A stretch of 64,000 nucleotides of DNA from Roseibacillus sp. GTDB lineage: Bacteria > Verrucomicrobiota > Verrucomicrobiia > Verrucomicrobiales > Akkermansiaceae. Positions 6,192 to 23,702 of this stretch are shown piece after piece (the first letter of the stretch is position 1; every line of letters begins with the position of its first letter). The position numbers and the translations under genes are program-made. Under the pieces are notes generated by a model, which did not search any database, was not told where the DNA came from, and was given only the letters and a program-made list of their open reading frames with translations. The stretch lies in contig JAQWTV010000128.1 in assembly GCA_029242545.1 (NCBI GenBank), forward strand, positions 4,817-68,816. Reading direction: 5' to 3'.

Positions 6192-8453
6192 ATGGTACGA
6201 TTAATTCTATTTTCACTGGCCACGACGCTTCTGTCCTTCCCAATCCATTCCGCTGAGGTTCCCTCTTCCTTGCCTGATCCGGACGGCAAGGCTGGCAATG
6301 CGAACAGGTCGGTAAAGGTCTACATTCTGGCCGGGCAGTCGAACATGGTCGGGATGGGCAACCTGAGTGGCGCCAGGAACGTCTACGATGGGGTTTATTT
6401 CAGCTCCAATCCCGATGTGCCTGATGGCCCGCTGCAGATTTATAAAGTTGGGAACTACAGGACTGCTCCCTTGGCCGTCTATCTTCCCGACGGCACGAAG
6501 ACAGACAAACCAATTGCAGAAGGAGGGCTGGAGGTGTCTCAACACGGGGTTTATCAACTGCACTGTGGATTTGGTGAGAATTCCTGCAACATCATGCAAC
6601 TCGATGGCAGGGAAGTTTACCGCTGCCAATCGGGGGGGCAACCGGTCAGGCAGGACGTCACGCTTGAAGCCGGGAAGCGTTACAGGTTCAAGATTTCCGG
6701 TTTCAAGGGCGCCCCGCCGAGGTTCTGGATGCAAAAGACGGATCTCCTGGGTAATGGAGACCTCGAGGCAGTGGTGAAGCGGGAGGGAAAGTTTCCCTGG
6801 TTGCTTGATGCAAAAGGCGAATGGACGGTGCGCAATGACGTTTACTTCCAGGAGGCACGTCTGGCGAAGGACGGCAAGGGTTCACCCCTGAGTGCCACCT
6901 CCAACGGCAAGTCGATCGGCCCGGAACTCGGTTTCGGTCACGTGCTGGGAACGTTTCACGATGAGCAGGTCCTGCTGATCAAGACCGCCCAGGGTAATCG
7001 TTCCCTGGGGTTTGATTTCCGTCCGCCATCAAGCGGTCGAACCGATCCCGGCAACGAGTTTGAATCCGCCGAATACAAACTGATGATCGAAGGTGTGCGC
7101 AAGACTTTGGACAATATCGCCAAGGTCGTCCCCGGATACAAGGGGCAGGGTTACGAGCTTGCCGGGTTTGTCTGGTTCCAGGGGCACAAGGACAGCTTTA
7201 CCGAAGCGTTGATTACTGAATACGAGAAGCACCTCGCCAGCCTGATCAACGATATCCGCAAGGAGTTCAAGAAGCCGAAGCTGCCCGCGGTGGTCGCCAC
7301 GATTGGATTTGGTGGACACCGTATGCAGGAGAAGTTCCTGAAAATTCACCAGGCCCAGATGGCGGTTGGTGATGCCCAGAAACACCCGGAGTATGCCGGC
7401 AATGTCGCTTCAGTCGACACCCGCGATTTCTGGCGTGAGGTGGACGAGTCGCCAAAGGGTGAGGACTATCATTACAACCGCAATGCCGAGACCTACCTGC
7501 TGATCGGGGACGCACTGGGCCGTGCGATGGTCAAGCTTCTCGGCGGCAGAGTCGAACCGTTGCCGCTGACTCCCCGGCCTAAGCGCGTCATTGCAGAGCA
7601 GAGCGTTGAGCCGTCGGAAGAGGAGAAATCCGCTGCCCAAAAAGCGCTGAAGCCCATTATCCTCGATGGGATCGCGGCTTCCTACATTGCCAACCCGCGC
7701 TACAACAAGGCCCTGCTCCAGGAGGCTTCTGGCGAACGGCCACAGCGGGCAAACCAGTTCCTGCGTGGCGCGATGTACGGACTCGGAAACTGCTATCAGG
7801 CTGCCGGAATCAACGACCACGATTGGCATTCCTTCGGTCCCAACCTTGATGCCGTGCAGTGGAGTTACTACAGCTTTGCCCCGAAGGAGAGCCAACCCAA
7901 GGAGAAAGGCAGCCGCTACCGCAAGGTGACCTATCCCGCAGGCATGGAGATGTGGAGCATGCCCGCTTTCGATACGGGGAAAGCCGGCTGGAAGCATGGC
8001 CTGCAACCATTCGGGCAACTGGATGGCAAGCTGGCACCGCTGACAGAAACATGTACGGCGTCATTTTGCCGGTGCGGTGAGAAACCCAGGACCCTATGGG
8101 AAAAGGAAGTCCTGCTGGTTCGTGGTACGGTGGAGCTTCCGCCAGTGAAGAAGGGGCATCGTTACCGCATCGTGGTGGGGGGGGCGGCCCACGTGAATTC
8201 CGGGGAAGGTTATGCGATCTATGCCAACGGCAAGTTGCTTGCCGAGTCAAAAACCGGGGTTGCGGTCAGGCAGGGGGGGCAACCTCGTGGGGCCCATGTC
8301 TACAGCGATTTTCTCGATGAATTCAAAGGCGGTCAGGTCACTCTCGCGGTGTCCAGTTTCCTGCGCTATAATCATCCACGTCGCGGTCTTCAGCCGCCCC
8401 GGGGTCATATCTCCCTGCAAATCGAGGAGCAAAAACTGCCTCCACTGAAATAG
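6192..8453 (+). CDS. DUF303/SGNH-type carbohydrate esterase with a PA14-like insertion and a C-terminal beta-rich module
   Basis: Signal peptide followed by YILAGQSNMVGMG. The core is paralogous to 12536..13729 (LLIKTAQGNRSLGFDFRPPSSG, AGFVWFQGHKDS). An extra ~140 aa follows block I (GVYQLHCGF...LEAGKRYRFKISGF). The C-terminal ~200 aa are shared with ORF 3..3227. Confidence 0.75.
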   Translation: MVRLILFSLATTLLSFPIHSAEVPSSLPDPDGKAGNANRSVKVYILAGQSNMVGMGNLSGARNVYDGVYFSSNPDVPDGPLQIYKVGNYRTAPLAVYLPDGTKTDKPIAEGGLEVSQHGVYQLHCGFGENSCNIMQLDGREVYRCQSGGQPVRQDVTLEAGKRYRFKISGFKGAPPRFWMQKTDLLGNGDLEAVVKREGKFPWLLDAKGEWTVRNDVYFQEARLAKDGKGSPLSATSNGKSIGPELGFGHVLGTFHDEQVLLIKTAQGNRSLGFDFRPPSSGRTDPGNEFESAEYKLMIEGVRKTLDNIAKVVPGYKGQGYELAGFVWFQGHKDSFTEALITEYEKHLASLINDIRKEFKKPKLPAVVATIGFGGHRMQEKFLKIHQAQMAVGDAQKHPEYAGNVASVDTRDFWREVDESPKGEDYHYNRNAETYLLIGDALGRAMVKLLGGRVEPLPLTPRPKRVIAEQSVEPSEEEKSAAQKALKPIILDGIAASYIANPRYNKALLQEASGERPQRANQFLRGAMYGLGNCYQAAGINDHDWHSFGPNLDAVQWSYYSFAPKESQPKEKGSRYRKVTYPAGMEMWSMPAFDTGKAGWKHGLQPFGQLDGKLAPLTETCTASFCRCGEKPRTLWEKEVLLVRGTVELPPVKKGHRYRIVVGGAAHVNSGEGYAIYANGKLLAESKTGVAVRQGGQPRGAHVYSDFLDEFKGGQVTLAVSSFLRYNHPRRGLQPPRGHISLQIEEQKLPPLK

Positions 8454-8563
8454 GCAGATCTTCTGCAATGGCCCTTTGACCATATCGCAAAGGCCTGAAA
8501 ACATGCGGATGGCAGGTGCAATGAGATCGTTATTATAGCGTGTTCCTATATCCTGTTCCGGAG

Positions 8564-11116
8564 ATGAGGCGGGATCAAAACAGGAATCGGCAACTGTTGC
8601 TGGGAGCTCTTATGTTCCCAGTTGTGATTCCCTGTTCCTTTGCAAAAGAAACACTTATCGGGTTTGAGGACGTGGTGGCGCCTTTCTTCAAGGCTAATTG
8701 CGTGAAGTGTCACGGGCAAAAGAAGGCCAAGGGTAAAGTGACGCTGCATGATCTTGATGGCAACCTGGCTGGAGAAAAGAACTTGGAGCGTTGGGAGTTG
8801 ATTCTCGACGTGTTGCACGCCAGCGAGATGCCGCCGGAAGAGGAGGAGAATCAACCGAGTGCCGAGGATCGTGCCGCCACCGTTAAATGGATCGAGTCGG
8901 GCCTGCGTGACTACGTAACAAAGGCAAGTAAGGTTGCGGTTCCTACAACAACACGCAGGCTAACCAACTTTGAGTATCAGAATACGATGCGGGACTTATT
9001 GGGTTTTGAACTCGAGCTGGCCAAGGACCTGCCCGTCGATCCGGACAAGCCCTATTATTTCAATAATACTGCGGAAATGATGATGATAGGGCCGGATCAG
9101 CTGGTTCGCTACAAGGAGGCGGCACGCAGGGCGATGGCAAGTGTGATTGTCGATCCTGGAAAGCCGGAAATCCACCGATTTAGCTCGAAGTGGGACCATG
9201 GAAAACCAGGGAAAGGCGGATTGACCCACGCCGAAATTGGCGTCTATCAGGGGCCTGGGGTCGGGAGGAAAACCGTCGGCTTGAAAAACTGGCCCAAGAC
9301 TGGTGAGTTCAAAATCCGCATCAAGGCATCGGGGAATTTCCCTCCGGGGTTCAGGGAAGTGCCACTCCGTCTGGTGATGGGTACCGACCTCCGCCATGAT
9401 TCAGGATCGGGAGTCTATCGGGAAGTGGGAATCGTTCATCTGACAAACGCTCATGATAAACCCAAGGAGTTTGAATTTCGGGGGCGTATCGAAAACATCC
9501 CGGTTCAGTCGGCCAGCAAGCACAGAAACAAGGTGCGCCCACCCAGCATCACCATCACCGCCCAGAATATTTTCGACAACGGCGAACTCAACGACCACCG
9601 CAAGAGCGGCTTTGATGCCTCCTGGAGTGTCAAGGCTCCCCGCGTGGTCCTTGAGTCGCTCGAGTTCGAGGCCCCCGTGTCTGAGGCCTGGCCGCCGGAG
9701 CACCACACGCGGATCTTCTTTGAATCACCTCTGCGTCACACGAACACTGGCGAGTATGCTTACGAGGTTATCAAACGTTTCATGGCACGGGCGTTCCGGC
9801 GACCGGTTGCCAGAGGTGAGGTCGATCATTATTTCCGGATCTACAAAATCTACGATGCAGAGTTAGACACTCTTGAGCAGACGATGCGTGAGACGCTTGC
9901 GATGGTGCTGATATCACCGCAGTTTCTTTATCATACGGTGATTGATGACGCCGCCGCGACGAAGCAATATGAACTCGCCTCACGTCTATCTTATTTCCTC
10001 TGGGGAAGCATGCCGGATCAGGAGCTGTTTGATCTCGCTGCCTCAGGCAAGCTCAATGACCCCACAGCGATTGAGGCCCAGGTCCGCCGACTCTTAGTTG
10101 ACAAGCGTGCGGCAGGATTTGTCGAGAACTTCACCACCCAGTGGCTAAGTATAGCCAAGATGAAAACGGTGAGCATCAATCGCGATCTCTTTCCGCGGTT
10201 TCTCTATACCGTGCACGTCGGTGAGCGACGTGGTCAGGAGCAGCAGTTCCGGCCAACTATCCGCGACTATATGCACGAGGAGACGGTGGGCTTCATCAGG
10301 GAACTGATCAGAAATAACGAGAGTGTCATGAATATCGTCGACTCTGATTTTGCTTACCTCAACGAGCCGCTGGCGGTGCATTACGGTGTCGAGGGCGTGC
10401 AGGGATTAAAGCTTCGTGCCGTTCCGATTAAGCCCGAGCATCGTCTTGGCGGTCTGCTAACGCAGGGCTCTGTGTTGGTGGGGAATTCCACGGGTTCGGC
10501 TCCACACCCGATCTATCGTGCTGTCTGGTTGCGGGAGGCCATTCTAGGCGATGAGGTTAAGCCGCCACCTGCTGAAGTTCCGGCATTATCTGACTCAGTT
10601 GGTGATTCTGCTGAGGAAGCGGTTTCGATCAAGAACCTGCTCGCGCTCCACCGTAATAAGGAAAGCTGCAACGATTGCCACATACGGCTCGATCCATGGG
10701 GGATTCCATTCGAACGCTACAGCGCGATCGGTAAATACCAGCCCTTGGTTCCCAAGAAGAAGGTCCGGGTGCGTGGGGTTAACCATCAGCAGGACAAGAG
10801 TCTCGCAAGCTACCAGGCCTATCTGAAATCGATCTATACGGAAGAAGTGGACGCCTCCTCGCGCGTGCCTTACGGCCCCATGGTGGACGGCATGCAGGAT
10901 CTCAAGAAGTATTTGCTCAAGGCTCGCAAGGATGAGATCGCCAAAAACATCATTCGCAAGCTCATGACTTACGGTATCGGCCGGGAGCTAACCTATCGCG
11001 ATCGATTTGAAGTTAAGAAATTGCTGACACTGGCCGAAGAAAACGGATATACACTGCAGGACATGATTATATCCATTTGCCAGAGCCCCACATTCACAGG
11101 TGTCCTGACCAAGTAG
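8564..11116 (+). CDS. DUF1592/DUF1585-type 'Planctomycete cytochrome c' family protein (PSD family), function unknown
   Basis: A CxxCH haem motif lies near the N-terminus (FFKANCVKCHGQKK). The long conserved body is typical of DUF1587/1592/1595/1588/1585 proteins (TQWL, PHPIYRAVW, CNDCHIRLDPWG). It is immediately followed by a DUF1552 partner. The track ORF starts at GTG 8540; ATG 8564 (MRRDQNRNRQLLLGALMF...) gives a signal-like N-terminus. Confidence 0.8.
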   Translation: MRRDQNRNRQLLLGALMFPVVIPCSFAKETLIGFEDVVAPFFKANCVKCHGQKKAKGKVTLHDLDGNLAGEKNLERWELILDVLHASEMPPEEEENQPSAEDRAATVKWIESGLRDYVTKASKVAVPTTTRRLTNFEYQNTMRDLLGFELELAKDLPVDPDKPYYFNNTAEMMMIGPDQLVRYKEAARRAMASVIVDPGKPEIHRFSSKWDHGKPGKGGLTHAEIGVYQGPGVGRKTVGLKNWPKTGEFKIRIKASGNFPPGFREVPLRLVMGTDLRHDSGSGVYREVGIVHLTNAHDKPKEFEFRGRIENIPVQSASKHRNKVRPPSITITAQNIFDNGELNDHRKSGFDASWSVKAPRVVLESLEFEAPVSEAWPPEHHTRIFFESPLRHTNTGEYAYEVIKRFMARAFRRPVARGEVDHYFRIYKIYDAELDTLEQTMRETLAMVLISPQFLYHTVIDDAAATKQYELASRLSYFLWGSMPDQELFDLAASGKLNDPTAIEAQVRRLLVDKRAAGFVENFTTQWLSIAKMKTVSINRDLFPRFLYTVHVGERRGQEQQFRPTIRDYMHEETVGFIRELIRNNESVMNIVDSDFAYLNEPLAVHYGVEGVQGLKLRAVPIKPEHRLGGLLTQGSVLVGNSTGSAPHPIYRAVWLREAILGDEVKPPPAEVPALSDSVGDSAEEAVSIKNLLALHRNKESCNDCHIRLDPWGIPFERYSAIGKYQPLVPKKKVRVRGVNHQQDKSLASYQAYLKSIYTEEVDASSRVPYGPMVDGMQDLKKYLLKARKDEIAKNIIRKLMTYGIGRELTYRDRFEVKKLLTLAEENGYTLQDMIISICQSPTFTGVLTK

Positions 11117-11126
11117 GAATAATTCC

Positions 11127-12467
11127 ATGAAACAGAAATCCTGGCATATTCATCGACGTGAGTTCGTCAGGGGAGGTGGCATTGCACTGGCCCTGCCGTT
11201 TCTCCAGGGCATGTCATGGGGCAAGGTGGCAACTGGCAAGTTGCTGCCAAAACGCATGGTGGTCAGCTACATCGCCTACGGTGTCTACGAACCTAAAACC
11301 AAGGACGGTTCGCACCACGACTGGAACTGGTGGCCGTGCAAGGGCGCCGGTCCGCTCACTTTTAATCAATCAGCAGCTCCCTTTGCGCCATTGAAGGATT
11401 CTGTGAGTTACCTGCGCGGACTTGAACACGCAGGAGGGGTCGGAATGGGCGGCCACAGCAGTGGCGATGTTTTCGCCACCGGCGCCAACATGTCTGGAAC
11501 GGAAAAAACAAACAACATCTCCGTCGATCAACTCGCCGCGAAGGTGAGCGGACATAAGACCCGTTACGCCTCACTCGTGTTAGGCACCGAGGGTGGCACG
11601 GGATTATATGGCAGCGCCAAGACACTCTCGCACTACGGTCCCGGTCGCCCGATCCCGTCGATGCACCGACCCCAGGATATTTTTAACCGCCTGTTCAATC
11701 CCTACTCAGGCAAAGGGGTCGAGCAAGTACGTGCCGACCTCAAACGAGAAGCGAGTGTGCTCGACCTGATGATGGAGGACTCCAGGAGACTCCAGGGTCG
11801 GCTTGGAAAAGAAGACCAGCAGAAAATGGAGGAGTATCTCGACTCCGTTCGCGCTCTGGAAAATCGTGTCGAACGTAACAGTCAATGGACACACCAGCCA
11901 TTGCCGAATGTCGATACCAAGGGGCTGAATCTTGAGATTTCCCACAAGGATCCGGAGGAATACACCCGATGCATGTATGACTTGCTCTACCTTGCGTTAC
12001 AGACCGATTCCACCCGCTTTGCCACCCTCATGCTCGAAAGTGAGCATTCCAGTGGCAGCGAGATGTGGAACTACGCCAACTACGTTCTCGGCTACAAAGG
12101 AGCCACTCACGACATCGCGCACAAGCGCCCAACCGAATCAGGAAAGTGGGACAACTGGCGTGCCAAACAGCATGCCTACTTCCTGGAGCGCTTGCGAAAT
12201 ACTCCGGAAGGGGACAGCAACATGCTCGATCAGACCGTAGTCGTCTGGGGGTCAGCTCATCCACACGCCTCCCACAATACCAGGAACTACCCGATTCAGG
12301 TGGCGGGGGGAAATGCGCTTGGATTCAAGCACGGGAACTTGCACTCCTTCGAGGGCGACAGGAAGGTGCCGCTTGCCAACCTGTTCGTCTCGATGCTTCA
12401 TGCAGTGGACGTGCCAGCGAAGTCGTTTGCCGACAGCACGGGGTCGATGGCCGAGGTGCTTGTATAG
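11127..12467 (+). CDS. DUF1552 domain protein, the usual partner of DUF1592 proteins
   Basis: Tat-like N-terminus (HRREFVRGGGIALALPFLQG). Length is ~446 aa. It starts 10 nt after the DUF1592 gene ends, which is the canonical gene pair in Planctomycetes and Verrucomicrobia. Confidence 0.8.
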   Translation: MKQKSWHIHRREFVRGGGIALALPFLQGMSWGKVATGKLLPKRMVVSYIAYGVYEPKTKDGSHHDWNWWPCKGAGPLTFNQSAAPFAPLKDSVSYLRGLEHAGGVGMGGHSSGDVFATGANMSGTEKTNNISVDQLAAKVSGHKTRYASLVLGTEGGTGLYGSAKTLSHYGPGRPIPSMHRPQDIFNRLFNPYSGKGVEQVRADLKREASVLDLMMEDSRRLQGRLGKEDQQKMEEYLDSVRALENRVERNSQWTHQPLPNVDTKGLNLEISHKDPEEYTRCMYDLLYLALQTDSTRFATLMLESEHSSGSEMWNYANYVLGYKGATHDIAHKRPTESGKWDNWRAKQHAYFLERLRNTPEGDSNMLDQTVVVWGSAHPHASHNTRNYPIQVAGGNALGFKHGNLHSFEGDRKVPLANLFVSMLHAVDVPAKSFADSTGSMAEVLV

Positions 12468-12535
12468 GCATGAAAGCTCTTCTCTGCATTCTTCTGCAAA
12501 GGCCTCGGCCTGACTCCCTTCAACTTACCCAAACC

Positions 12536-13729
12536 ATGAAATTACTCCTAATAAGTCTTGTGGCCCTGTTGGGCGTTTCTTTTTCGTTGTCGGCCAAGCC
12601 GCTGAAAGTCTACCTGTTGGTCGGCCAATCCAATATGCAGGGGCATGCGGCAGAGCGAACGTTGGGGCACCTGGAGATGGATCCGAAAACGGCTCCGTTG
12701 TTGAAAGCGATCCAGAATGCGGATGGCTCGGCCAAGGTGCATGATCAGATTTGGATTTCATCAATAGAGACCTCTGAGGAGTCCGGTGTGAAGGAAGGGA
12801 AACTGACTGTCGGCTACGGCGCAGGAGGGCGCGATCCCAAGATCGGTCCGGAGTTGACCTTCGGCATCACCATGCAAAAGCACGCTGGTGAGCCAATTCT
12901 TTTGATCAAGGCATCGTGGGGGGGCAAGTCTTTGAACACGGATTTCCGGCCACCCAGTTCGGGGGCCTATGTTTTCAACGAGCAGCAAATCGAGAACTTC
13001 AAGAAGCGAGAAAAGGATCTCGCTGAGGTGCGCCAGGAAAAGATCAATTCCACCGGAGTTTATTATCGGCTCATGCTCGAGCATATCCGCAAGGTGCTCG
13101 GTGACATCAAGCGCGTGTATCCGGCTTACGATGCCAAGGCGGGGTACGAGGTGGCGGGATTTGTGTGGTTCCAGGGCTGGAACGACATGGTCGATGGCGG
13201 CACCTATCCCACGCGTGGCCAGCCGGGCAGCTATGATGCCTACAGCAAGAATCTTACGCACTTCATACGCGATGTGCGCAAGGATCTCAAGGCACCCAAG
13301 CTGCCGTTTGTGATCGGTGTGATGGGTGCGGGTGGGCCCATTACCAAGTATGGTCCGGACCAGAAACGCTACGCCGGCATCCACGGTGAATTCCGCAAGG
13401 CCATGGCCGCACCAGCCAAGTTGCCGGAATTCAGGGGTAACGTCACCGCCGTGCTGACGGAAAATTACTGGGACGGAGAGCTCTCCGAGCTTGTCGATCG
13501 CCGCGGCAGGATCAACGCCAAACGCCGCGAGCTTTCAAAGGATAAATCACTCAACCGGGAACAACGTGATAAGGCCCTTGCTGAGCTCAATGCCAAGCTG
13601 TTCACCAAGGAAGAGCTGAAGATCCTGGAACTTGGCGTCTCCAATGCCGCCTATCACTATCTGGGATCGGCCAAGATTCTTGGCCAGATCGGCAAAGCCT
13701 TTGCTGATGCGCTTGCCAGAATGAACTAA
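12536..13729 (+). CDS. DUF303/SGNH-type carbohydrate esterase (sialate O-acetylesterase-like), minimal version
   Basis: Signal peptide MKLLLISLVALLGVSFSLSA followed by VYLLVGQSNMQGHA, LLIKASWGGKSLNTDFRPPSSG and AGFVWFQGWNDM. The track ORF 12065.. extends upstream over the DUF1552 gene. ATG 12536 is in frame and gives the signal peptide. Confidence 0.8.
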   Translation: MKLLLISLVALLGVSFSLSAKPLKVYLLVGQSNMQGHAAERTLGHLEMDPKTAPLLKAIQNADGSAKVHDQIWISSIETSEESGVKEGKLTVGYGAGGRDPKIGPELTFGITMQKHAGEPILLIKASWGGKSLNTDFRPPSSGAYVFNEQQIENFKKREKDLAEVRQEKINSTGVYYRLMLEHIRKVLGDIKRVYPAYDAKAGYEVAGFVWFQGWNDMVDGGTYPTRGQPGSYDAYSKNLTHFIRDVRKDLKAPKLPFVIGVMGAGGPITKYGPDQKRYAGIHGEFRKAMAAPAKLPEFRGNVTAVLTENYWDGELSELVDRRGRINAKRRELSKDKSLNREQRDKALAELNAKLFTKEELKILELGVSNAAYHYLGSAKILGQIGKAFADALARMN

Positions 13730-13757
13730 CCTGCAAAAAAGAAGGCAACCAACTCAT

Positions 13758-14795
13758 ATGACTCGATTATTTCTACTGTGTCTGCTCTGCACGGCTTTGT
13801 TCAATGATCTGGCAGCTCAGCAGGGCAATCCTGAAGCGGCCGCCCCTCAAGGTGACCTTTGGTTAACGTATCCGGGGTCAAAGGGACCGGGAAAGGGAAA
13901 GCATGTTGTGCTGATTGCTGCTGAGCAGGAGTACCGCAGTGAACAATCCATGCCGATGCTGGCGAAGGTTCTCTCCAGTCATCATGGCTTTGATTGCACC
14001 GTTCTGTTTTCCGTGAATGAAAAAGGGGAAGTTGACCCAACGATGCCGGCTCCGTTCAAAGACAAAGAAAAACGCCATAATATCCCAGGTCTTGATCACC
14101 TGGAAAAGGCTGATTGCGTGATCTGGATCTCGCGCTTCATGCATCTTCCTGAAGCTCAGATGCAGCATTTCTATGACTACTTTGATTCAGGAAAACCACT
14201 CATTGCCCTGCGAACTGCCAACCACGGTTTCTGGGGTGGGCTCAAATACAAGAAGGGAGGTAAAAATGTTTCCCTGCGCGAGATGCTGGGAGGCACTTTC
14301 ATGGGCCATCACGGGGGCTGGCATCGTGAGGCGACACGCGGAGTGATTGTTCCTGAGAACAGGAAACATTCTATTCTCAGCGGAGTCGGGGATATCTGGG
14401 GAACTTCCGATGTGTATCGGTGTCATAATGACAAGAATCCTTTCCCGGAGGATTGTAAGTCATTGGTCCTGGGCCAGCCATTGATCAATCTTGAAAGGGA
14501 TGCTCCACCCAATACCAAGAAGGAGCCATTACCTGTTGCTTGGACGAAAACATGGATCGGGAACAAGGGTCTGGAATCCAGAATATTTCATTTCACGATG
14601 GGCTCCGCGATGGATCTGGAAAATGACGGAGTGAGAAGAATTACGGTAAACGCCGTCTACTGGGGGCTAGGTATGGAAAAAGCAATCAAGGGGGACAGAT
14701 CAATTGAAATCATTGGCGATTACAGCCCGCTGAAGGCCGGTTTTAATTACGAGAAGCTGGGCGTTAAACCTCGTAAGGTAGAGTATTATCGGTGA
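13758..14795 (+). CDS. ThuA-like (class-I glutamine-amidotransferase-fold) exported protein
   Basis: Signal peptide present. The pattern HVVLIAAEQEYRSEQSMPMLAKVL...ADCVIWISRF...GKPLIALRTANHGF resembles ThuA-domain proteins. Assignment is by motif memory only. Confidence 0.55.
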   Translation: MTRLFLLCLLCTALFNDLAAQQGNPEAAAPQGDLWLTYPGSKGPGKGKHVVLIAAEQEYRSEQSMPMLAKVLSSHHGFDCTVLFSVNEKGEVDPTMPAPFKDKEKRHNIPGLDHLEKADCVIWISRFMHLPEAQMQHFYDYFDSGKPLIALRTANHGFWGGLKYKKGGKNVSLREMLGGTFMGHHGGWHREATRGVIVPENRKHSILSGVGDIWGTSDVYRCHNDKNPFPEDCKSLVLGQPLINLERDAPPNTKKEPLPVAWTKTWIGNKGLESRIFHFTMGSAMDLENDGVRRITVNAVYWGLGMEKAIKGDRSIEIIGDYSPLKAGFNYEKLGVKPRKVEYYR

Positions 14796-14886
14796 TATGA
14801 CCGCGTGATTCAGCGAGAACCGCCTGAGATTTCCTGATTGCCGTGGGATTCGAAAGAGCTGGAATTCAGAAAGTGGAAAAAGCATC

Positions 14887-16044
14887 GTGCGGGCATCAAT
14901 GAGCCTGTATCGACCGATAGTCACTGCCCTGCTTGTTATTACTGGATTATCGGTCACCTCCCGCGCCGGTGACGGACTGGAAGATTTCCTCGGGAAACCA
15001 GTTTTCGAGAAACAGCGCCTGTTCGATGATCAGCGCTATCCCAATGTGGTAGTGACCACCCGCGGAACGGTAATTTCTGTCTGGGGTAACAATGGGGTGG
15101 TGGTGCGCCGGAGTGAGGATGGAGGCAGGGCGTGGGGTGGACTCATCACCGTCTCCGAAAAGGGATATCATGGTGGAGGTGCAACGGTTGAAGAAAAATC
15201 TGGGGATATCCTGGTCTTCGTCGAGGACCGGCAGCCGCCGGCACCATTGACTGTATATCGTAGTCGTGATGATGGTAAGACGTGGCAGGCGCAGGTGACG
15301 GTGATTGAGAAGGACGTAAACGGGAACACGCCTTCCATGCACATGAATGAACACGGTATCACATTGCGGCATGGCAAGCATAAGGGACGCCTGCTGCGCC
15401 CGACTCGCTACTACGGTCCTAATGGAGGTGGTGCAGAATGGCCCCTGCAATATACCAATGCCATCTACAGTGACGACGGCGGAGAGTCATGGAAGACGAG
15501 CGGGCCTTTTCCTGAAAAGGGGACGGGGGAGGCGACCCTTGTGGAGTTGTCGGATGGGCGCATTTACTATAATTCGCGGGTGCATTGGCCCGAGCGTCCA
15601 CGGAATAAACGCCGACGAGAAGCATGGAGTGACGATGGCGGAGTAACGTGGAAGGATTGGCGTATCGTGGAGGCGCTTCCAGATGGAGATCAGGGCAGAC
15701 CCTACGGATGCATGGGAGGATTGACGCGATTGCCGTTAGAGCAGCGTGATGTCCTGATCTTCAGCAACCTTGATACCGACGCCTCGCATCGTGAGAGGGT
15801 CTCGGTATGGGCGAGTTTTGATGGTGGGAAGACCTGGCCTCTCAAGCGATTAGTGGATTCTGGACGAAGTGGCTACTCATCGCTCGCGGTCGGTCGGGTC
15901 CAGACCAAATCGAACGGGTGGATCTATCTTCTCTACGAGCACGATCCATTCAAGGGAGCTTACATTGCGCGATTCAACCTGGCATGGCTGCTTGACGGTG
16001 AACTCACAGGAGATGGGAAACTACCGCGTATTAAGAGCAGATAG
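14887..16044 (+). CDS. BNR/Asp-box exo-alpha-sialidase-like glycoside hydrolase (GH33-like)
   Basis: Five canonical Asp-boxes (SxDxGxxW): SEDGGRAW, SRDDGKTW, SDDGGESW, SDDGGVTW and SFDGGKTW. Signal peptide present. An RYP motif sits near the N-terminus where sialidases carry RIP. The start is GTG 14887, or alternatively ATG 14899. Confidence 0.8.
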   Translation: MRASMSLYRPIVTALLVITGLSVTSRAGDGLEDFLGKPVFEKQRLFDDQRYPNVVVTTRGTVISVWGNNGVVVRRSEDGGRAWGGLITVSEKGYHGGGATVEEKSGDILVFVEDRQPPAPLTVYRSRDDGKTWQAQVTVIEKDVNGNTPSMHMNEHGITLRHGKHKGRLLRPTRYYGPNGGGAEWPLQYTNAIYSDDGGESWKTSGPFPEKGTGEATLVELSDGRIYYNSRVHWPERPRNKRRREAWSDDGGVTWKDWRIVEALPDGDQGRPYGCMGGLTRLPLEQRDVLIFSNLDTDASHRERVSVWASFDGGKTWPLKRLVDSGRSGYSSLAVGRVQTKSNGWIYLLYEHDPFKGAYIARFNLAWLLDGELTGDGKLPRIKSR

Positions 16045-16057
16045 AGAACGAGTCGAG

Positions 16058-17443
16058 TTAACGGCGGCTGCTTCGTTGTTCGAAGTGCTTCTGTAATTCT
16101 TCCCTGCTGAGGGAACCGTTTTCGTCAGTGTCCATCATCTTGAAGCGGTCGATCATCGGTCCACGTGCCTCTTCGAGGGAGATGGCTCCATCCCCGTTGG
16201 CATCCATTCGTTCCAGCATCTGCCCTGCATCAGGACGGCGACGTTGGCCGAAGCCTCCTCGACCGCCGCCCGGTCGCTGGCGCCTGTCAAGGCCTCTCCC
16301 TGCTCCCGGAGAACGCACCGAACCGGCATCCCGGTCACGCCTGAGTTCGATTTCGTAGCGATGGGTGACAGCCCGGCACCAGCCCTCTTCGTCATCGCAG
16401 GCAAAATAGGAAACCGTAAGTTCGAGAGGCTGCTCAATCCGTCCGGTACTGGAATCGATCTCGATCAAGAACTCACGTGGATCAATATCCGAGGGGGTCT
16501 TGACCTTGGGAGCGGACCCTTTGCTTGTGCTCAGCTTGATCCCCTTGGTGGTCTTGAATTCAAAATGAAGGGGGTCTGCAAGGTTGTTCCAATGCACCGT
16601 ATGGACAGGGTCGAGGTGGAAGCCGATATGGAGTTTTCCCTTCCCCTGGTCCATCAGTCCCCGATCCGCCTCGGCACGGAGTTTAATGTAGAATGTCTCC
16701 TTTGCCTGTTCCTTTTCGCCCTTAGGAGAGATGGGACGGACAATTACAGCCATTGCCCCTTCGGGTTTTTCCGTCCGGGGAACGATACCGCTAGCGATCT
16801 TGCTTGCCGGGGCGGCCTTGGTCTTTCGATTCAGATCGGATGGTGAGGTTATCGTCTTTGTCTTCCCAATGAGCTTCTCCAAGTCAGCTCTCAGGGTTTC
16901 AGGATCGCTCCAGCTTCGGGCGACAAGAATCCTGCCTTCCGGGGAAATGATGAATTCCGAGTTGGGCCGATCGCCAAGTGCATGCTTGAGATCGTTCGCC
17001 ATGGTGTCGGCAAGCCATGGGATTCTCGTGTCGAGTTGCCTGCGGGCGGCAGAGACATGCTTGAGTCTCTCCTCGATGGTTATGGGTTGGACGAGTCGGT
17101 CGCGTTCCGGATGGGCAAGGGATTTGTAGACATAGTAGAAGACGAGCTTCTCGCTCTTCTCCCGGTAATCATGCTGAATTGCCTCCAAACTGGAGACATT
17201 ACGAAGGAAAGGGGGTCAGGTCAGGCAGCCAAAGACGAGAACGGCATGTTTTCCCTTGAGCTTCTCTCTTAGGCCAAAGCTGCGTCCCTGAGCATCGAAT
17301 ACGTCGATATCCGGAATCGCACTGCCGATCGCGGGAACCTTATCGTCACCTCCTCTCCGCTCTCTTCGGTCCTGCCCTTGGACAAGAGATTGGAGGGAGC
17401 AGGCAGTCAAGAGGACCACCGTGATTGCTGTGCTCTTTATCAT
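16058..17443 (-). CDS. Candidate selenoprotein: a lipoprotein with a deiodinase-like thioredoxin fold (CxxU), a DsbD-N-like domain, an RG-rich linker and two EF-hands. The in-frame UGA at 17218..17216 is read as Sec.
   Basis: ORFs 17216..17443 and 16058..17188 share one frame and are separated by a single TGA. Read-through gives VLVFGCLT-U-PPFLRNVSSLEAIQ...LVFYYVYKSLAHPERD. The lipobox is VVLLTAC. The motif LTVSYFACDDEEGWC is DsbD-alpha-like. The EF-hand loops DANGDGAISLEE and DTDENGSLSREE are canonical. Confidence 0.6.
17181..17198 (-). other. Candidate bacterial SECIS hairpin downstream of the in-frame UGA
   Basis: The mRNA reads UGA-CCCCCUUUCCUUCGUAA-U GUCUCCA GUU UGGAGGC A. This forms an 8-bp stem (one G.U pair) with a GUU triloop starting 17 nt after the UGA. 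G is the first loop base. Confidence 0.4.
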
Positions 17444-20422: not shown

Positions 20423-21169
20423 TCACAGGTGGGGTGTTTCGACCTCGTTACGGGCGACCTTGATGAAGACGTCATCGAGATCCTTGCCTTCAAAGCGGGA
20501 CTTGATCTCTCCTGCCGTTCCAGAGGCAAGGATTCTGCCTTGGTGTAGGAAGAGAATACGGTCGCAGACTTCTTCGATATCCCGCATGTTGTGGGAGGTA
20601 TAGAGAATAGCCGGGGAGCTTTCCTTCTGGAGGCGGCGAACGAGTTTACGAACCTTGTCCGCGATATCTGGATCGAGAGAAGCAGTGGGTTCGTCCAAGA
20701 GAAGAAGTTCTGGGTCGTTGAGCAGGGCCTTAGCGAGGTTTACCCGGGTGCCCTCCCCTGCGGAAAGGCGCCCCGTGATATTGTTGCGAAGGTGGTGAAT
20801 TCCAAGCATCTCGAGAAGCTCCTCGATCTTCTCGCCTGGATTCTTCACCCCGTAGAGCCCGGCGAAGACCCGGAGGTTCTGCCAAACCTTGAGGTTCGAG
20901 GGAAGGTTGGCATAAGTTGTGCAGAAATTGGTTCGCTTCAGGATCTCTATCCGATGCTTCTGAAGGTCTTTTCCGAAGACGTGGATGCTTCCCTCGTTCG
21001 GAATGGTCAGGCCGAGAATCATGTTCATCACGGTGGTCTTGCCGGCACCGTTGACACCTAGGAGACCGATGACCTCGCCCGCCCGAACGTCGAGGTCTAG
21101 ACCGTCGACTGCAACGATGTCCCCAAAGCGTTTAGTCAAGGATCGAGCCTGAAGGATAGGAGGAATCAT
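20423..21169 (-). CDS. ABC transporter ATP-binding protein (ABC-2/NatA-like)
   Basis: Walker A is GVNGAGKTT, the signature is LSAGEGTRV, Walker B is LLLLDEPT and the H-loop is YTSHNM. Confidence 0.9.
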   Translation of the reverse strand: MIPPILQARSLTKRFGDIVAVDGLDLDVRAGEVIGLLGVNGAGKTTVMNMILGLTIPNEGSIHVFGKDLQKHRIEILKRTNFCTTYANLPSNLKVWQNLRVFAGLYGVKNPGEKIEELLEMLGIHHLRNNITGRLSAGEGTRVNLAKALLNDPELLLLDEPTASLDPDIADKVRKLVRRLQKESSPAILYTSHNMRDIEEVCDRILFLHQGRILASGTAGEIKSRFEGKDLDDVFIKVARNEVETPHL

Positions 21170-21203
21170 GACGTGAGGAGTTCTGGTACGGTCGCTTAGG
21201 ATC

Positions 21204-22667
21204 CTAGTGCAGAAGCTTTTCTCTGATTGAGTCCGTGACCTGCTTTGGATTGGCCTTGCCCTTGGATGCCTTCATGACCTGGCCAGTAAGCCAGTTAACG
21301 AGTTTTTCGTTGCCACCTTGGATCTCAGATACCTTGTCTGGATTGGAGGCGATGGCCTCGTCGATGAGGGTATCGATCGCTCCGGTGTCAGCCGGTTCAA
21401 ATCCGAGGTCCTTAGCAACCTCGTCGGGGTTCTGGTCGGGGTTAGCCCAGAGGGAATTAAAAACCTCACGCGCCTGATTGTTGGAAATGGTTCCCTCCTC
21501 AATGAGGTCTACAATACTGGCAAGTTTTTCAGCAGAGAGGGGAGAGGCTGAGGGAGTGAGGTTATCCTCATTGAGATGCCGAAGAAGAGTATTGATTACC
21601 CAGTTGGCAATTTTCTTAGGAGTCGCTGTAGATGCCTCTGCGGCAGTCTCGAAATAGTCAGCAAGTGAGCGATCCGAGGAGAGGACATAGGCATCATAGC
21701 TGGTGACCTTAAAATCTCGTTCAAAACGCGCCGACTTGTCAGCAGGGAGTTCAGGAACATGGCTCCGCATTCGTTCGACCATGCTTCCCGACCGGACTGG
21801 AAGGAGATCAGGATCCGGGAAATAGCGATAATCATGAGCGTCCTCCTTGCCTCGCATGAACTCGGTAACGCCTGCATCGTCATTCCACCGCCAGGTAGCT
21901 TGAGCGTGTGTTCCACCTTCCTCGAGAACTCTCACCTGACGCTCTATTTCGTGGTGGAGAGCGCGGCGGACTGCAGAGATGGAGTTCATGTTTTTGAGCT
22001 CGATCTTGGTACCAAGCTTTTCAGTGCCCTTTTTACGGACGGACACGTTGACGTCACAGCGCAGCTGCCCCTTTTCCATATCAGCGTCAGAAATTTCTCC
22101 ATAAATGAGGATTTGCTGGAGAGTTTTGAGATAAGCGAAGGCCTCTTCTGGGGTTTCAATTTCGGGTTCAGAGACAATTTCCATGAGAGGAGTCCCGGCA
22201 CGATTGAAATCAATTACACTGGAATTAGCCAAGTGAGTGGATTTCGCGACGTCCTCTTCAAGATGAATACGGGTTAGTCCGATTTTCTTTCCTGGGTTCG
22301 CAATGTCCTGCTGATAATCCTTTGGATAGCTGTAGTCAGGCAATGGGACGCAGCCCCCAAGGCAAAGTGGCAGATCAAATTGCGAGATCTGGTAGTTCTT
22401 GGGCATGTCAGGATAGAAATAATTTTTTCTATCCCACTTGGATATTTCCGGGGTCGTGCAATCGAGAAGTAGTCCAGCTAGGATAGTTTGCTCGATTGCG
22501 ACCCTATTGAGAACGGGAAGAGCTCCGGGAAGGCCCATGCAGGTTGGGCATACATGGCTGTTTGGTTCTTCTCCAAAGCTGGTTCTACACGAGCAGAACA
22601 TCTTGCTCCGGGTCTTGACCTGGCAGTGGACTTCGAGCCCGATAGTAGCGATATAGTCCTTGTGCAT
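21204..22667 (-). CDS. gatB: Asp-tRNA(Asn)/Glu-tRNA(Gln) amidotransferase subunit B
   Basis: MHKDYIATIGLEVHCQVKTRSKMFCSC..., with a C-terminal YqeY/GatB domain. The track ORF starts 36 codons upstream at 22775. ATG 22667 gives the canonical N-terminus. Confidence 0.9.
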   Translation of the reverse strand: MHKDYIATIGLEVHCQVKTRSKMFCSCRTSFGEEPNSHVCPTCMGLPGALPVLNRVAIEQTILAGLLLDCTTPEISKWDRKNYFYPDMPKNYQISQFDLPLCLGGCVPLPDYSYPKDYQQDIANPGKKIGLTRIHLEEDVAKSTHLANSSVIDFNRAGTPLMEIVSEPEIETPEEAFAYLKTLQQILIYGEISDADMEKGQLRCDVNVSVRKKGTEKLGTKIELKNMNSISAVRRALHHEIERQVRVLEEGGTHAQATWRWNDDAGVTEFMRGKEDAHDYRYFPDPDLLPVRSGSMVERMRSHVPELPADKSARFERDFKVTSYDAYVLSSDRSLADYFETAAEASTATPKKIANWVINTLLRHLNEDNLTPSASPLSAEKLASIVDLIEEGTISNNQAREVFNSLWANPDQNPDEVAKDLGFEPADTGAIDTLIDEAIASNPDKVSEIQGGNEKLVNWLTGQVMKASKGKANPKQVTDSIREKLLH

Positions 22668-22826
22668 CGACAGGAATGGGGAGGCAACGTTCGTGTAGTT
22701 GTAGTAAGACCGAAGTGTGAGGTCCGAGGGAGGCAAGTGCAAGGGCGGGAACCAAGCCGGATCTCCAAGGTTCAATAATTAAGAACCTCTATTGTCAGGA
22801 CGATACGGCACGCTGGAGTTCAGACT

Positions 22827-23702
22827 TTAATTGCCTTCTTGAGCTGGCAGCAGCCCGATAGCAGCTTCGATATCAAGATTCGCCAGCCTGGAACGAGCGT
22901 TTTCCTCCGCGCAGACTTTCTTGATTGAGTCAGAATTGAGTAATTGAGCAGTTTGCCCCTGACTATAGAGAGCTTTCAGCTGAGCTTTCTGTTCCGTTAG
23001 AAGATAATCAATCTGAGCCTGCTTAGCTGCTGCCCGGACATCCGGCTTCAAGTTAGCGCGGGCCCACACTCTCTCGTTATCAACAAGAAGGGTGAGTTTA
23101 GATAGGTTTGCGCGGGCCCGATTATTGAAAAGATCATACTGTCCATGGAGTTTTCCAGCAATGGTGGCATCAATTTTCCGCTTCAGTTTTGATAGAGCAG
23201 GCTGGGCAGGTTGCTTGGAAAGACGATCCTCTGGGGTTGAGGCGCTGATCCACTCCTTGCTTGAGAGGGCGTCTCTGACCCAGTTCAGTTCATCGAGGGT
23301 GCCCACGTAGCGAATTCCTGAAAGGCAGAACCACGTGAAGGCAATCCCCATGACAAATCCGAGGATGCCTCCGCTTGGAGTGAATCTTCTTTTTGTGCCC
23401 TCCTTTGGTTTCGCCGGAGTCAGGATGATTCCAAACAGGGCGCGGGCGACGAAGAAGGCCGCAAATCCAATAATGAGGCCTACCGCTCCATTCATCCAAG
23501 TGTCGGGATCGTCAATGAGGAATCCTGCCAATGATGACCCGTTCTGGAAGCCCCAGAACCCAGCCCATGCTCCCGCAGAGAGAGCAATGAGGCCAAAGGT
23601 CATGCGAATAAATCCCTTAAGCAGTCCGATAATAATGAACGCGATGATAATTAGCCCGAGGACACCGTAAATCGTGAGGTCAGGGGAGGAGATCGCGAGC
23701 AT
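22827..23702 (-). CDS. cvpA: CvpA-family integral membrane protein with a C-terminal soluble extension
   Basis: The N-terminus has four predicted TM helices in the CvpA pattern (GLLKGFIRMTFGLIALSAGAWAGFW). Assignment is by motif memory only. Confidence 0.55.
   Translation of the reverse strand: MLAISSPDLTIYGVLGLIIIAFIIIGLLKGFIRMTFGLIALSAGAWAGFWGFQNGSSLAGFLIDDPDTWMNGAVGLIIGFAAFFVARALFGIILTPAKPKEGTKRRFTPSGGILGFVMGIAFTWFCLSGIRYVGTLDELNWVRDALSSKEWISASTPEDRLSKQPAQPALSKLKRKIDATIAGKLHGQYDLFNNRARANLSKLTLLVDNERVWARANLKPDVRAAAKQAQIDYLLTEQKAQLKALYSQGQTAQLLNSDSIKKVCAEENARSRLANLDIEAAIGLLPAQEGN

Follow-up and report, generated by a model that had tools for sequence, protein, structure and literature searches.

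The 64,000-nucleotide stretch of DNA analyzed here (hereafter, the window) belongs to a Roseibacillus sp. assembly (GCA_029242545.1, contig JAQWTV010000128.1, positions 4,817 to 68,816 of the forward strand) and carries, on its minus strand, two consecutive open reading frames (ORFs) that appear to be parts of a single selenoprotein gene. The first of these ORFs starts with ATG, spans 17443..17216, and encodes 75 amino acids before it is terminated by the TGA codon at 17218..17216. Past this TGA, the same frame is free of stop codons as far as a TAA, and read-through yields 461 codons, with the predicted protein running ...KGKHAVLVFGCLT-U-PPFLRNVSSLEAIQHDY... (upstream flank also given as ...HAVLVFGCLT-U) across the TGA. 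The initial annotation of this DNA had already noticed that the two minus-strand ORFs share a frame and are separated by a TGA, and its read-through sequence was reproduced exactly. The features at the core of the locus are the following:

16058..17443, minus strand: complete coding sequence of the predicted selenoprotein, 461 codons including selenocysteine (Sec) at residue 76, stop codon TAA at 16060..16058

17216..17218, minus strand: predicted Sec codon UGA, residue 76, the second redox position of the C73-L-T-U76 motif; TGA is conserved among relatives and replaced by Cys in homologues

17180..17198, minus strand: putative bacterial selenocysteine insertion sequence (SECIS), a hairpin of 19 nt, UGUCUCCA-GUU-UGGAGGCA, with an 8-bp stem and a 3-nt GUU loop

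From comparative sequence evidence, we conclude with a probability of about 0.92 that this is one gene for an exported selenoprotein in which the UGA at 17218..17216 is read as Sec instead of stop. A candidate CxxU selenoprotein was what the initial annotation had proposed, and the tests of orthologues, hairpin, and fold and motif uphold that proposal. Its observation and interpretation thus hold, but it missed the prior publication of the family and two further domains of the protein.

A scan of 185,579 species-representative genomes identified 402 stretches encoding relatives of this gene, of which the best 80 were examined. Seventy-eight of these loci are intact and carry TGA at the Sec codon, one is decayed but retains the TGA, and one lies on a contig that starts past the site, so that TGA is present in all 79 informative loci. 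The 80 loci include Roseibacillus and Akkermansiaceae metagenome-assembled genomes (MAGs; 82-86% identity) as well as other Verrucomicrobiales, Planctomycetota (Pirellulaceae), Acidobacteriota, Latescibacterota, and Krumholzibacteriia; the TGA-bearing loci come from at least five phyla, including Verrucomicrobiota, Planctomycetota, Acidobacteriota, and Latescibacterota. In the Roseibacillus MAGs, tblastn matches at 82-86% identity cover residues 1-461, that is, both sides of the TGA. A separate scan of metagenomes (loci L083-L162) was seeded with Cys-form proteins and, despite these seeds, recovered TGA at 75 of the 80 motif-bearing sites and TGT or TGC (TGY) at five; with two separately fetched Cys forms (L081 and L082) added, TGY accounts for 7 of the 82 tabulated sites. 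The flanks are kept on both sides of the TGA, in the form VFGCLT*PPF(L/I)RNV, and GCLT[U/C]P is invariant.

At the protein level, a search returned 941 homologues. About 96 of the top 120 start after the TGA, with query coverage mostly of 68-82%, and about two dozen of these best 120 are full-length. In the alignment of full-length homologues, the TGA column is occupied by Cys (TGT or TGC, in the context GCLTCP) in 25. The comparison of orthologues at this codon, which the initial annotation had put forward as a check, therefore came out in favor of recoding: TGA at 79 of 79 genomic and 75 of 80 metagenomic sites, Cys in full-length homologues, and conservation of both flanks.

A lone in-frame stop resembles, on its face, a recent nonsense mutation or a miscalled base, and the locus could accordingly be a pseudogene, or its TGA a sequencing or assembly error for TGC or TGT. 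One truly decayed relative does exist: the copy in Roseibacillus sp. NP58 (L014; PBTP01000063.1, 5001-6274) has extra stops, one of them inside the signal peptide, and a deletion of ~25 amino acids; it reads PARP in place of LAHP and GCLA in place of GCLT but retains the TGA, and looks like a decaying copy. The window copy, in contrast, shows no disabling change besides the TGA. Crude estimates of the ratio of nonsynonymous to synonymous change (pN/pS) against three Roseibacillus orthologues gave 0.11-0.17 for the part before the TGA and 0.10-0.12 for the part after it, and these low values on both sides imply purifying selection on both fragments. Furthermore, more than 150 independent assemblies, drawn from several phyla, have the TGA at this very codon, and synonymous sites next to it are constrained for the hairpin discussed below, which is not expected in a dead gene. 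We consider a pseudogene or an error to be effectively refuted.

The hairpin starts 17 nt past the UGA, and its loop starts 25 nt past it. The initial annotation had described an 8-bp stem with a GUU loop beginning 17 nt after the UGA, all of which is correct, but the span is 17180..17198 rather than 17181..17198. Published criteria for bacterial SECIS elements (PMC13188914, Fig. 2) comprise an apical loop of 3-9 nt with a G among its first two nucleotides, an upper stem of 4-16 bp, a distance of 16-37 nt from the UGA, and a minimum free energy of -7.5 kcal/mol or lower. The window hairpin agrees with all four (loop with G then U, 8 bp, 25-nt spacing, -10.4 kcal/mol), which bears out the earlier remark that the spacing and the G in the loop fall within the rules for such elements. 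The three structural features are present in all 136 non-redundant TGA forms; the energy falls within the threshold in 85 of the 136 when the local hairpin is folded and in 132 when a 63-nt segment is folded.

Comparative analysis provided further evidence on this element. Across 75 distinct TGA sequences, the hairpin occurs in one register, from +21 to +39 counted from the U of UGA, in the form GUC(U/C)CC-(G)GU(C/U)(U)-GGAG(G/A)C. Pairing is seen in 89% of the cells in the true register but in 30-56% once the 3' arm is shifted by 1-3 nt. Double-sided changes occur in four of the eight pairs, such as the replacement of C-G by U-A in L011, L012, L027, and L072, and the covariation observed was reached by none of 500 shuffles. 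Within the hairpin, third codon positions hardly vary (only C or U occurs at position 24, and of the 75 sequences, 74 have C at 27, 71 have U at 30, and 74 have G at 33), whereas the four-fold sites outside the hairpin (6, 9, 15, 18, 42, 45, and 48) use all four bases freely. At the pair +25/+35 (window positions 17194 and 17184), the window and 25 of the 75 sequences have U-A; the remaining 50 have a conserved C.A mismatch, which goes with a Pro codon CCC replacing Ser UCC and which the SECIS stem evidently tolerates or even favors.

Replacement of Sec by Cys within the family serves as a control. In one subfamily with 58-69% identity, a hairpin of -9 to -12 kcal/mol is retained by the TGA forms (T*PPFLWNVSGLEAV), whereas in their Cys siblings L083, L085, L091, L098, and L119 (TCPPSMWNI.GLEAV), the hairpin is gone (-2.5 to -4.5 kcal/mol) and the peptide that it encodes is altered from PPFLWNV to PPSMWNI. 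Averaged over unique sequences, the local energy is -9.0 kcal/mol for TGA forms (n = 132) and -4.4 kcal/mol for TGY forms (n = 6), and the hairpin is absent from five of the six unique Cys forms. The exception is L081 (3244-3303; P0098, Logan SRR33394507), a TGT form with a complete GUCUCC-GGUCU-GGAGGC hairpin at -9.1 kcal/mol, which, judging from its sequence, appears to be a fossil SECIS left after a recent Sec-to-Cys replacement. A check on the hairpin that had been suggested along with the original prediction thus revealed a fixed distance from the TGA in orthologues, compensatory changes, frozen synonymous sites, and loss in five of six non-redundant Cys forms. By these comparative signs, the hairpin is under selection at the RNA level and is tied to the TGA state. 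This makes the family an unusually clear natural experiment in how SECIS elements evolve, with its fixed distance, frozen sites, loss after Sec-to-Cys replacement, and one fossil.

The ORFs could also be two genes, with a real stop at the TGA, such that a secreted peptide of 75 amino acids would be followed by a separately translated C-terminal part starting at TTG 17188 or at Met148. This is how gene callers annotate the locus everywhere, and both an in-frame TTG and a later ATG are present; some termination at the UGA is, moreover, expected from inefficient Sec insertion. The listed start of the downstream ORF is indeed the TTG at 17188..17186, as had been noted, and lies within the hairpin, covering the last base of the loop and entering the 3' arm. 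The statement that the downstream piece has no ATG holds for its start but not beyond, given that the earliest in-frame ATG is found 72 codons past the TGA (Met148), in agreement with the 314-amino-acid database call P0002. A product that starts downstream would be missing the signal peptide as well as the initial beta-strands of the thioredoxin fold and the entire redox motif; that such a piece would be devoid of signal peptide and active site had been anticipated in the initial annotation, and the TGA splits the motif midway. Cys-form homologues, in contrast, are single full-length proteins, and neither a start codon nor its spacing is conserved past the TGA, where the region is constrained as an RNA hairpin instead. 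Two separate genes are therefore most improbable, and one gene read through the UGA is preferred.

The division of this gene in databases is systematic. For members of this family, gene callers always produce an ORF of 71-80 amino acids and another of 326-394 amino acids. In NCBI, JGI, ENA, and Logan, the shortened product is named "hypothetical protein" or "EF-hand domain-containing protein," and selenocysteine is annotated in none of the public entries P0001-P0120. The gene is split in every public assembly examined, as predicted from the window sequence, and the NCBIfam selenoprotein models do not cover it. This is an annotation gap that current pipelines perpetuate. The recoded UGA was correctly recognized by a reader who had only the sequence.

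Beyond the redox motif, the read-through protein comprises a putative signal peptide and three domains:

17375..17443, minus strand: signal peptide, residues 1-23, MIKSTAITVVLLTACSLQSLVQG|Q, with predicted cleavage by signal peptidase I at a putative site

16844..17332, minus strand: deiodinase/peroxiredoxin-like thioredoxin-fold domain, approximately residues 38-200, delineated by Pfam, Foldseek, and an AlphaFold model

16328..16762, minus strand: beta-sandwich middle domain, approximately residues 228-372, with invariant columns and a predicted local distance difference test (pLDDT) score of 89 when modeled alone

16064..16231, minus strand: C-terminal EF-hand pair, approximately residues 405-460, with EF-hand Pfam models above cutoffs

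In all orthologues, the N-terminus is hydrophobic and leads to a site of the AxA or G|Q type, and in the AlphaFold model, the signal peptide is a helix with low pLDDT. Cleavage by signal peptidase I is more likely than lipidation, to judge from these sequences; a lipoprotein reading of the LLTAC motif was rejected, given that its Cys is not conserved among orthologues.

In the thioredoxin-fold domain, G72, C73, T75, P77, A110-H111-P112, D146, and N150 are invariant. The Pfam family PF00837 (T4_deiodinase) matches residues 64-173 with 25.6 bits (E-value = 8.9e-6), below the gathering cutoff of 27, and is present in precomputed annotations of two homologues (P0089 and P0097); Redoxin and AhpC Pfam matches to the window protein are weak. 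The NCBIfam model NF038285 ("deiodinase family protein") scores 70.2 bits against a cutoff of 250, with model positions 158-321 of 347 matched, so the window protein is related to this family but has a different architecture. None of the selenoprotein-specific NCBIfam models of NCBI match the window protein. AlphaFold modeling gave an overall pLDDT of 84, with most of the thioredoxin-fold domain above 85 and one 10-residue block at 75. In Foldseek searches, the first domain resembled mouse Dio3 (4tr3; template modeling [TM] score = 0.71) and Dio2 (9h48; TM score = 0.76) and was also close to Prx and ResA proteins, and the best overall match was the two-domain C-terminal region of Mycobacterium tuberculosis DipZ (E-value = 9e-10). 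The top sequence match in PDB is Dio3 (4tr3, E-value = 8.8e-5), aligned over FG..TCPPF, Y..AHP, and DTMAN. This alignment and the TM scores of 0.71-0.76 support the selenoprotein reading, in which the initial annotation had located the UGA at the catalytic position of deiodinase-family proteins.

The middle domain has the invariant motifs HWNNL and DPREF and an invariant Cys pair, C349-x6-C356 (16397..16399 and 16376..16378), at a beta-hairpin. Foldseek matches for this domain are weak; DsbD N-terminal domains appear repeatedly among the top ones (E-values of 2e-3 to 1e-2, TM scores of 0.26-0.47) along with GAE, NEAT, and generic immunoglobulin (Ig)-like folds; a profile of the domain searched against PDB gave no sequence match, and precomputed annotations assign PF11412 to 3 of 120 homologues. 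We hypothesize from these structural comparisons that the middle domain may act as a DsbD-N-like redox relay. The C-terminal domain is assigned by EF-hand_5 (40.5 bits, cutoff 25.9), EF-hand_1 (31.8, cutoff 25.4), and EF-hand_6 (31.6, cutoff 25), and profile searches matched lanmodulin, calbindin, and calmodulin. A disordered Gly/Arg-rich linker (residues 379-401) precedes the EF-hand pair; its pLDDT is below 50, whereas the EF-hand helices are well modeled.

Several results weigh against the selenoprotein and the redox functions attributed to it. With respect to the hairpin, the local hairpin is weaker than -7.5 kcal/mol in 51 of the 136 sequences unless folding extends over a longer segment, the stem contains a C.A mismatch in two-thirds of the family members, and the fold energy of the window hairpin, taken singly, is unremarkable compared to shuffled sequences (z = 0.36), so the case rests on the comparative data. 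No Rfam family matched in a search of the whole window at gathering thresholds, and a permissive search of 17100..17260 gave a single chance match to a long noncoding RNA. With respect to the Sec machinery, the 64-kb window encodes no tRNA at all and hence no tRNA-Sec, a Pfam survey of 20 window proteins detected no sel genes, and tblastn searches of the window and 168 loci (1.13 Mb) with Escherichia coli SelD and SelA sequences produced no match. With respect to function, the DsbD-like assignment of the middle domain is drawn from weak fold matches, PF11412 gave no match to the window protein in a Pfam scan at E-values up to 1, and no conserved redox partner gene or neighborhood was found in Verrucomicrobia, Acidobacteria, or other lineages, with neither CcdA nor DsbD encoded adjacent to the gene. 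Further searches were also negative: the few tRNAs detected in 60 related loci do not include tRNA-Sec, a strict scan for a second selenoprotein in the window and a relaxed scan for a redox motif plus hairpin returned this gene only, and we found no literature on Roseibacillus and selenocysteine.

The negative search for Sec machinery in the window and related loci would fit the alternative that a standard amino acid (Trp, Cys, or Gly) is inserted at the UGA, by way of code reassignment or of near-cognate or suppressor read-through. One database entry, P0022, has Trp at this codon, the single homologue with Trp in the TGA column, which suggests that the caller read TGA as Trp. TGA is, however, the genuine stop of 6 of the 20 confidently identified window genes, including those for NuoD, NuoF, and NuoM, and as a normal stop in the window, it implies that the genetic code is not reassigned. 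Moreover, the codon is aligned with Cys in homologues, inside a CxxC-type redox motif, and the conserved hairpin with a G-U loop at 25 nt, which vanishes when the codon is TGY, is the specific signature of SelB-dependent recoding. Sec use in a genome that contains this family is also indicated by a peroxiredoxin encoded in L165. Decoding as a standard amino acid is, on balance, very unlikely.

The L165 locus lies on a 3.0-Mb ENA contig (ERZ26222911), where a second split selenoprotein gene (7163-7700, plus strand) is located directly downstream of the deiodinase-like gene. It encodes a signal-peptide-bearing peroxiredoxin with a canonical PxxxTxxU site, AWYPKAFTGG-U-TAEC, which the pipeline called as a 67-amino-acid Redoxin fragment. 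Planctomycetes, in which the family also occurs, are documented to have Sec machinery (PMC4807772, Table S8). From the evolutionary signature, the Planctomycetota machinery, and the L165 Sec-peroxiredoxin, we infer that the organism represented by the window decodes Sec.

Bacterial deiodinase-like selenoproteins were first reported from the Sargasso Sea (PMC1088965) and then in the selenoproteome of the Global Ocean Sampling expedition (PMC2398784), and the deiodinase-like family is listed among 119 prokaryotic selenoprotein families in a 2026 catalogue (PMC13188914, Table 1). Xu et al. 2021 (PMC9402790, Fig. 2B) described a fusion of a deiodinase-like selenoprotein with an EF-hand domain and noted additional conserved Cys residues of unclear function. 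Like that fusion, the window protein combines a deiodinase-like thioredoxin domain containing Sec with a C-terminal EF-hand (PF13499) and extra conserved Cys, is of marine origin, and has a bacterial SECIS right after the UGA; the identity of the two families is suggested by this architecture rather than by sequence comparison. The motif given for the deiodinase-like family in the table of the 2026 review is UxxC (PMC13188914), whereas the window protein has CxxU (C73-L-T-U76). PMC9402790 gives neither a DsbD-like description of the middle beta-sandwich and its Cx6C pair nor a distribution across Verrucomicrobiota, Planctomycetota, and Acidobacteriota. The window gene is thus a previously unannotated member of an already published kind of selenoprotein. 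What is new here is the Roseibacillus-like instance, the phylum-wide distribution, the SECIS consensus quantified with Cys forms as a control, the tentative interpretation of the middle domain as DsbD-N-like, and the observation that pipelines still split the gene.

The animal deiodinases Dio1-3 share with the window protein the thioredoxin/peroxiredoxin-like fold (root mean square deviation of about 3 Å) and the location of Sec after Thr in FG..T-U-PPF. They differ from it in that the identity is only 20-22% and the partner Cys is at -3 (CxxU) in the window protein compared to -2 in the Dio3 core, FGSCT-C/U-PPF. In addition, the window protein is predicted to be a soluble, secreted protein and contains two further domains, and its SECIS lies within the coding region rather than in the 3' untranslated region. 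No thyroid hormone substrate is expected in bacteria, and bacterial proteins of this type have no assigned function (PMC1088965). This family could serve as a bacterial system in which the deiodinase fold is amenable to study outside animals.

The recoding signal can be compared with the fdhF-type SECIS/SelB system of E. coli, in which the hairpin is also located in the ORF straight after the UGA, with a small apical loop containing G followed by U (or G) and a spacing of 16-37 nt. The loop of the fdhF SECIS starts about 18 nt after the UGA, compared with 25 nt in the window gene. GGUCU, the commonest loop in the family (80 of 136 sequences), presumably resembles the GGUC loop of the fdhF minihelix. 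Unlike the fdhF-type elements, the hairpin of this family often has a C.A mismatch in its stem and is matched by no Rfam model.

As for the middle domain, its possibly Ig-like beta-sandwich, with a redox-type Cys pair at a beta-hairpin and a location beside a thioredoxin-fold domain, recalls nDsbD (PF11412) and the C-terminal module of DipZ (2hyx and 5cyy). The window protein differs from both in its Cx6C spacing, the weak fold scores, the lack of a sequence match, and the lack of a fused or nearby transmembrane DsbD/CcdA domain. The DipZ sandwich has been described as similar to carbohydrate-binding modules and is not known to contain this Cys pair.

Our working model is that the protein could be a periplasmic thiol/selenol oxidoreductase. 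The UGA would be decoded as Sec by the standard bacterial mechanism (PMC13188914), the signal peptide would be cleaved, and the Cys73-x-x-Sec76 center would cycle between the selenol/thiol and selenenylsulfide states. The nDsbD-resembling sandwich could exchange reducing equivalents with the CxxU center through its Cx6C pair, and Ca2+ binding by the EF-hands might stabilize or regulate the protein. A more specific and, in our estimation, unlikely proposal is that this is a self-contained Ca2+-dependent periplasmic selenoenzyme in which the Cx6C sandwich relays electrons to the CxxU center for reductive dehalogenation, or a similar selenium-dependent reduction, of halogenated or oxidized compounds from marine algae. 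If so, the selenoenzyme would be a bacterial functional counterpart of the animal deiodinases, and horizontal transfer of the gene along with its recoding signal would account for the nearly identical SECIS hairpins in five phyla.

Several relatives depart from the common organization. Tandem TGA-containing paralogues, ~1.3 kb apart and each with its own hairpin, are present in L100 (388 and 1726) and L110 (379 and 1723). An extra N-terminal EF-hand region was found in L057 (799-1818), L062 (551-1561), P0060, and P0094, and L057 and L062 have LQHPE where the window gene has LAHPE. In P0081, an esterase/lipase domain is fused at the C-terminus.

The window itself is ordinary chromosomal DNA that encodes the nuo operon, gatB, aroC, tig, penicillin-binding proteins, and PEP-CTERM and DUF1552 proteins. 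Around the locus, the genes are arranged in synteny with the TARA Oceans Roseibacillus scaffolds L166 and L167, which indicates that the window comes from a marine Roseibacillus-like verrucomicrobium. On one side of the selenoprotein gene (8540-16044), the order is a PSCyt/PSD cytochrome-domain protein, DUF1552/HXXSHH, SASA, ThuA, and a BNR sialidase-like protein, and on the other side (20423-23702), it is PEP-CTERM, an N-methyl protein, ABC, GatB, and CvpA.

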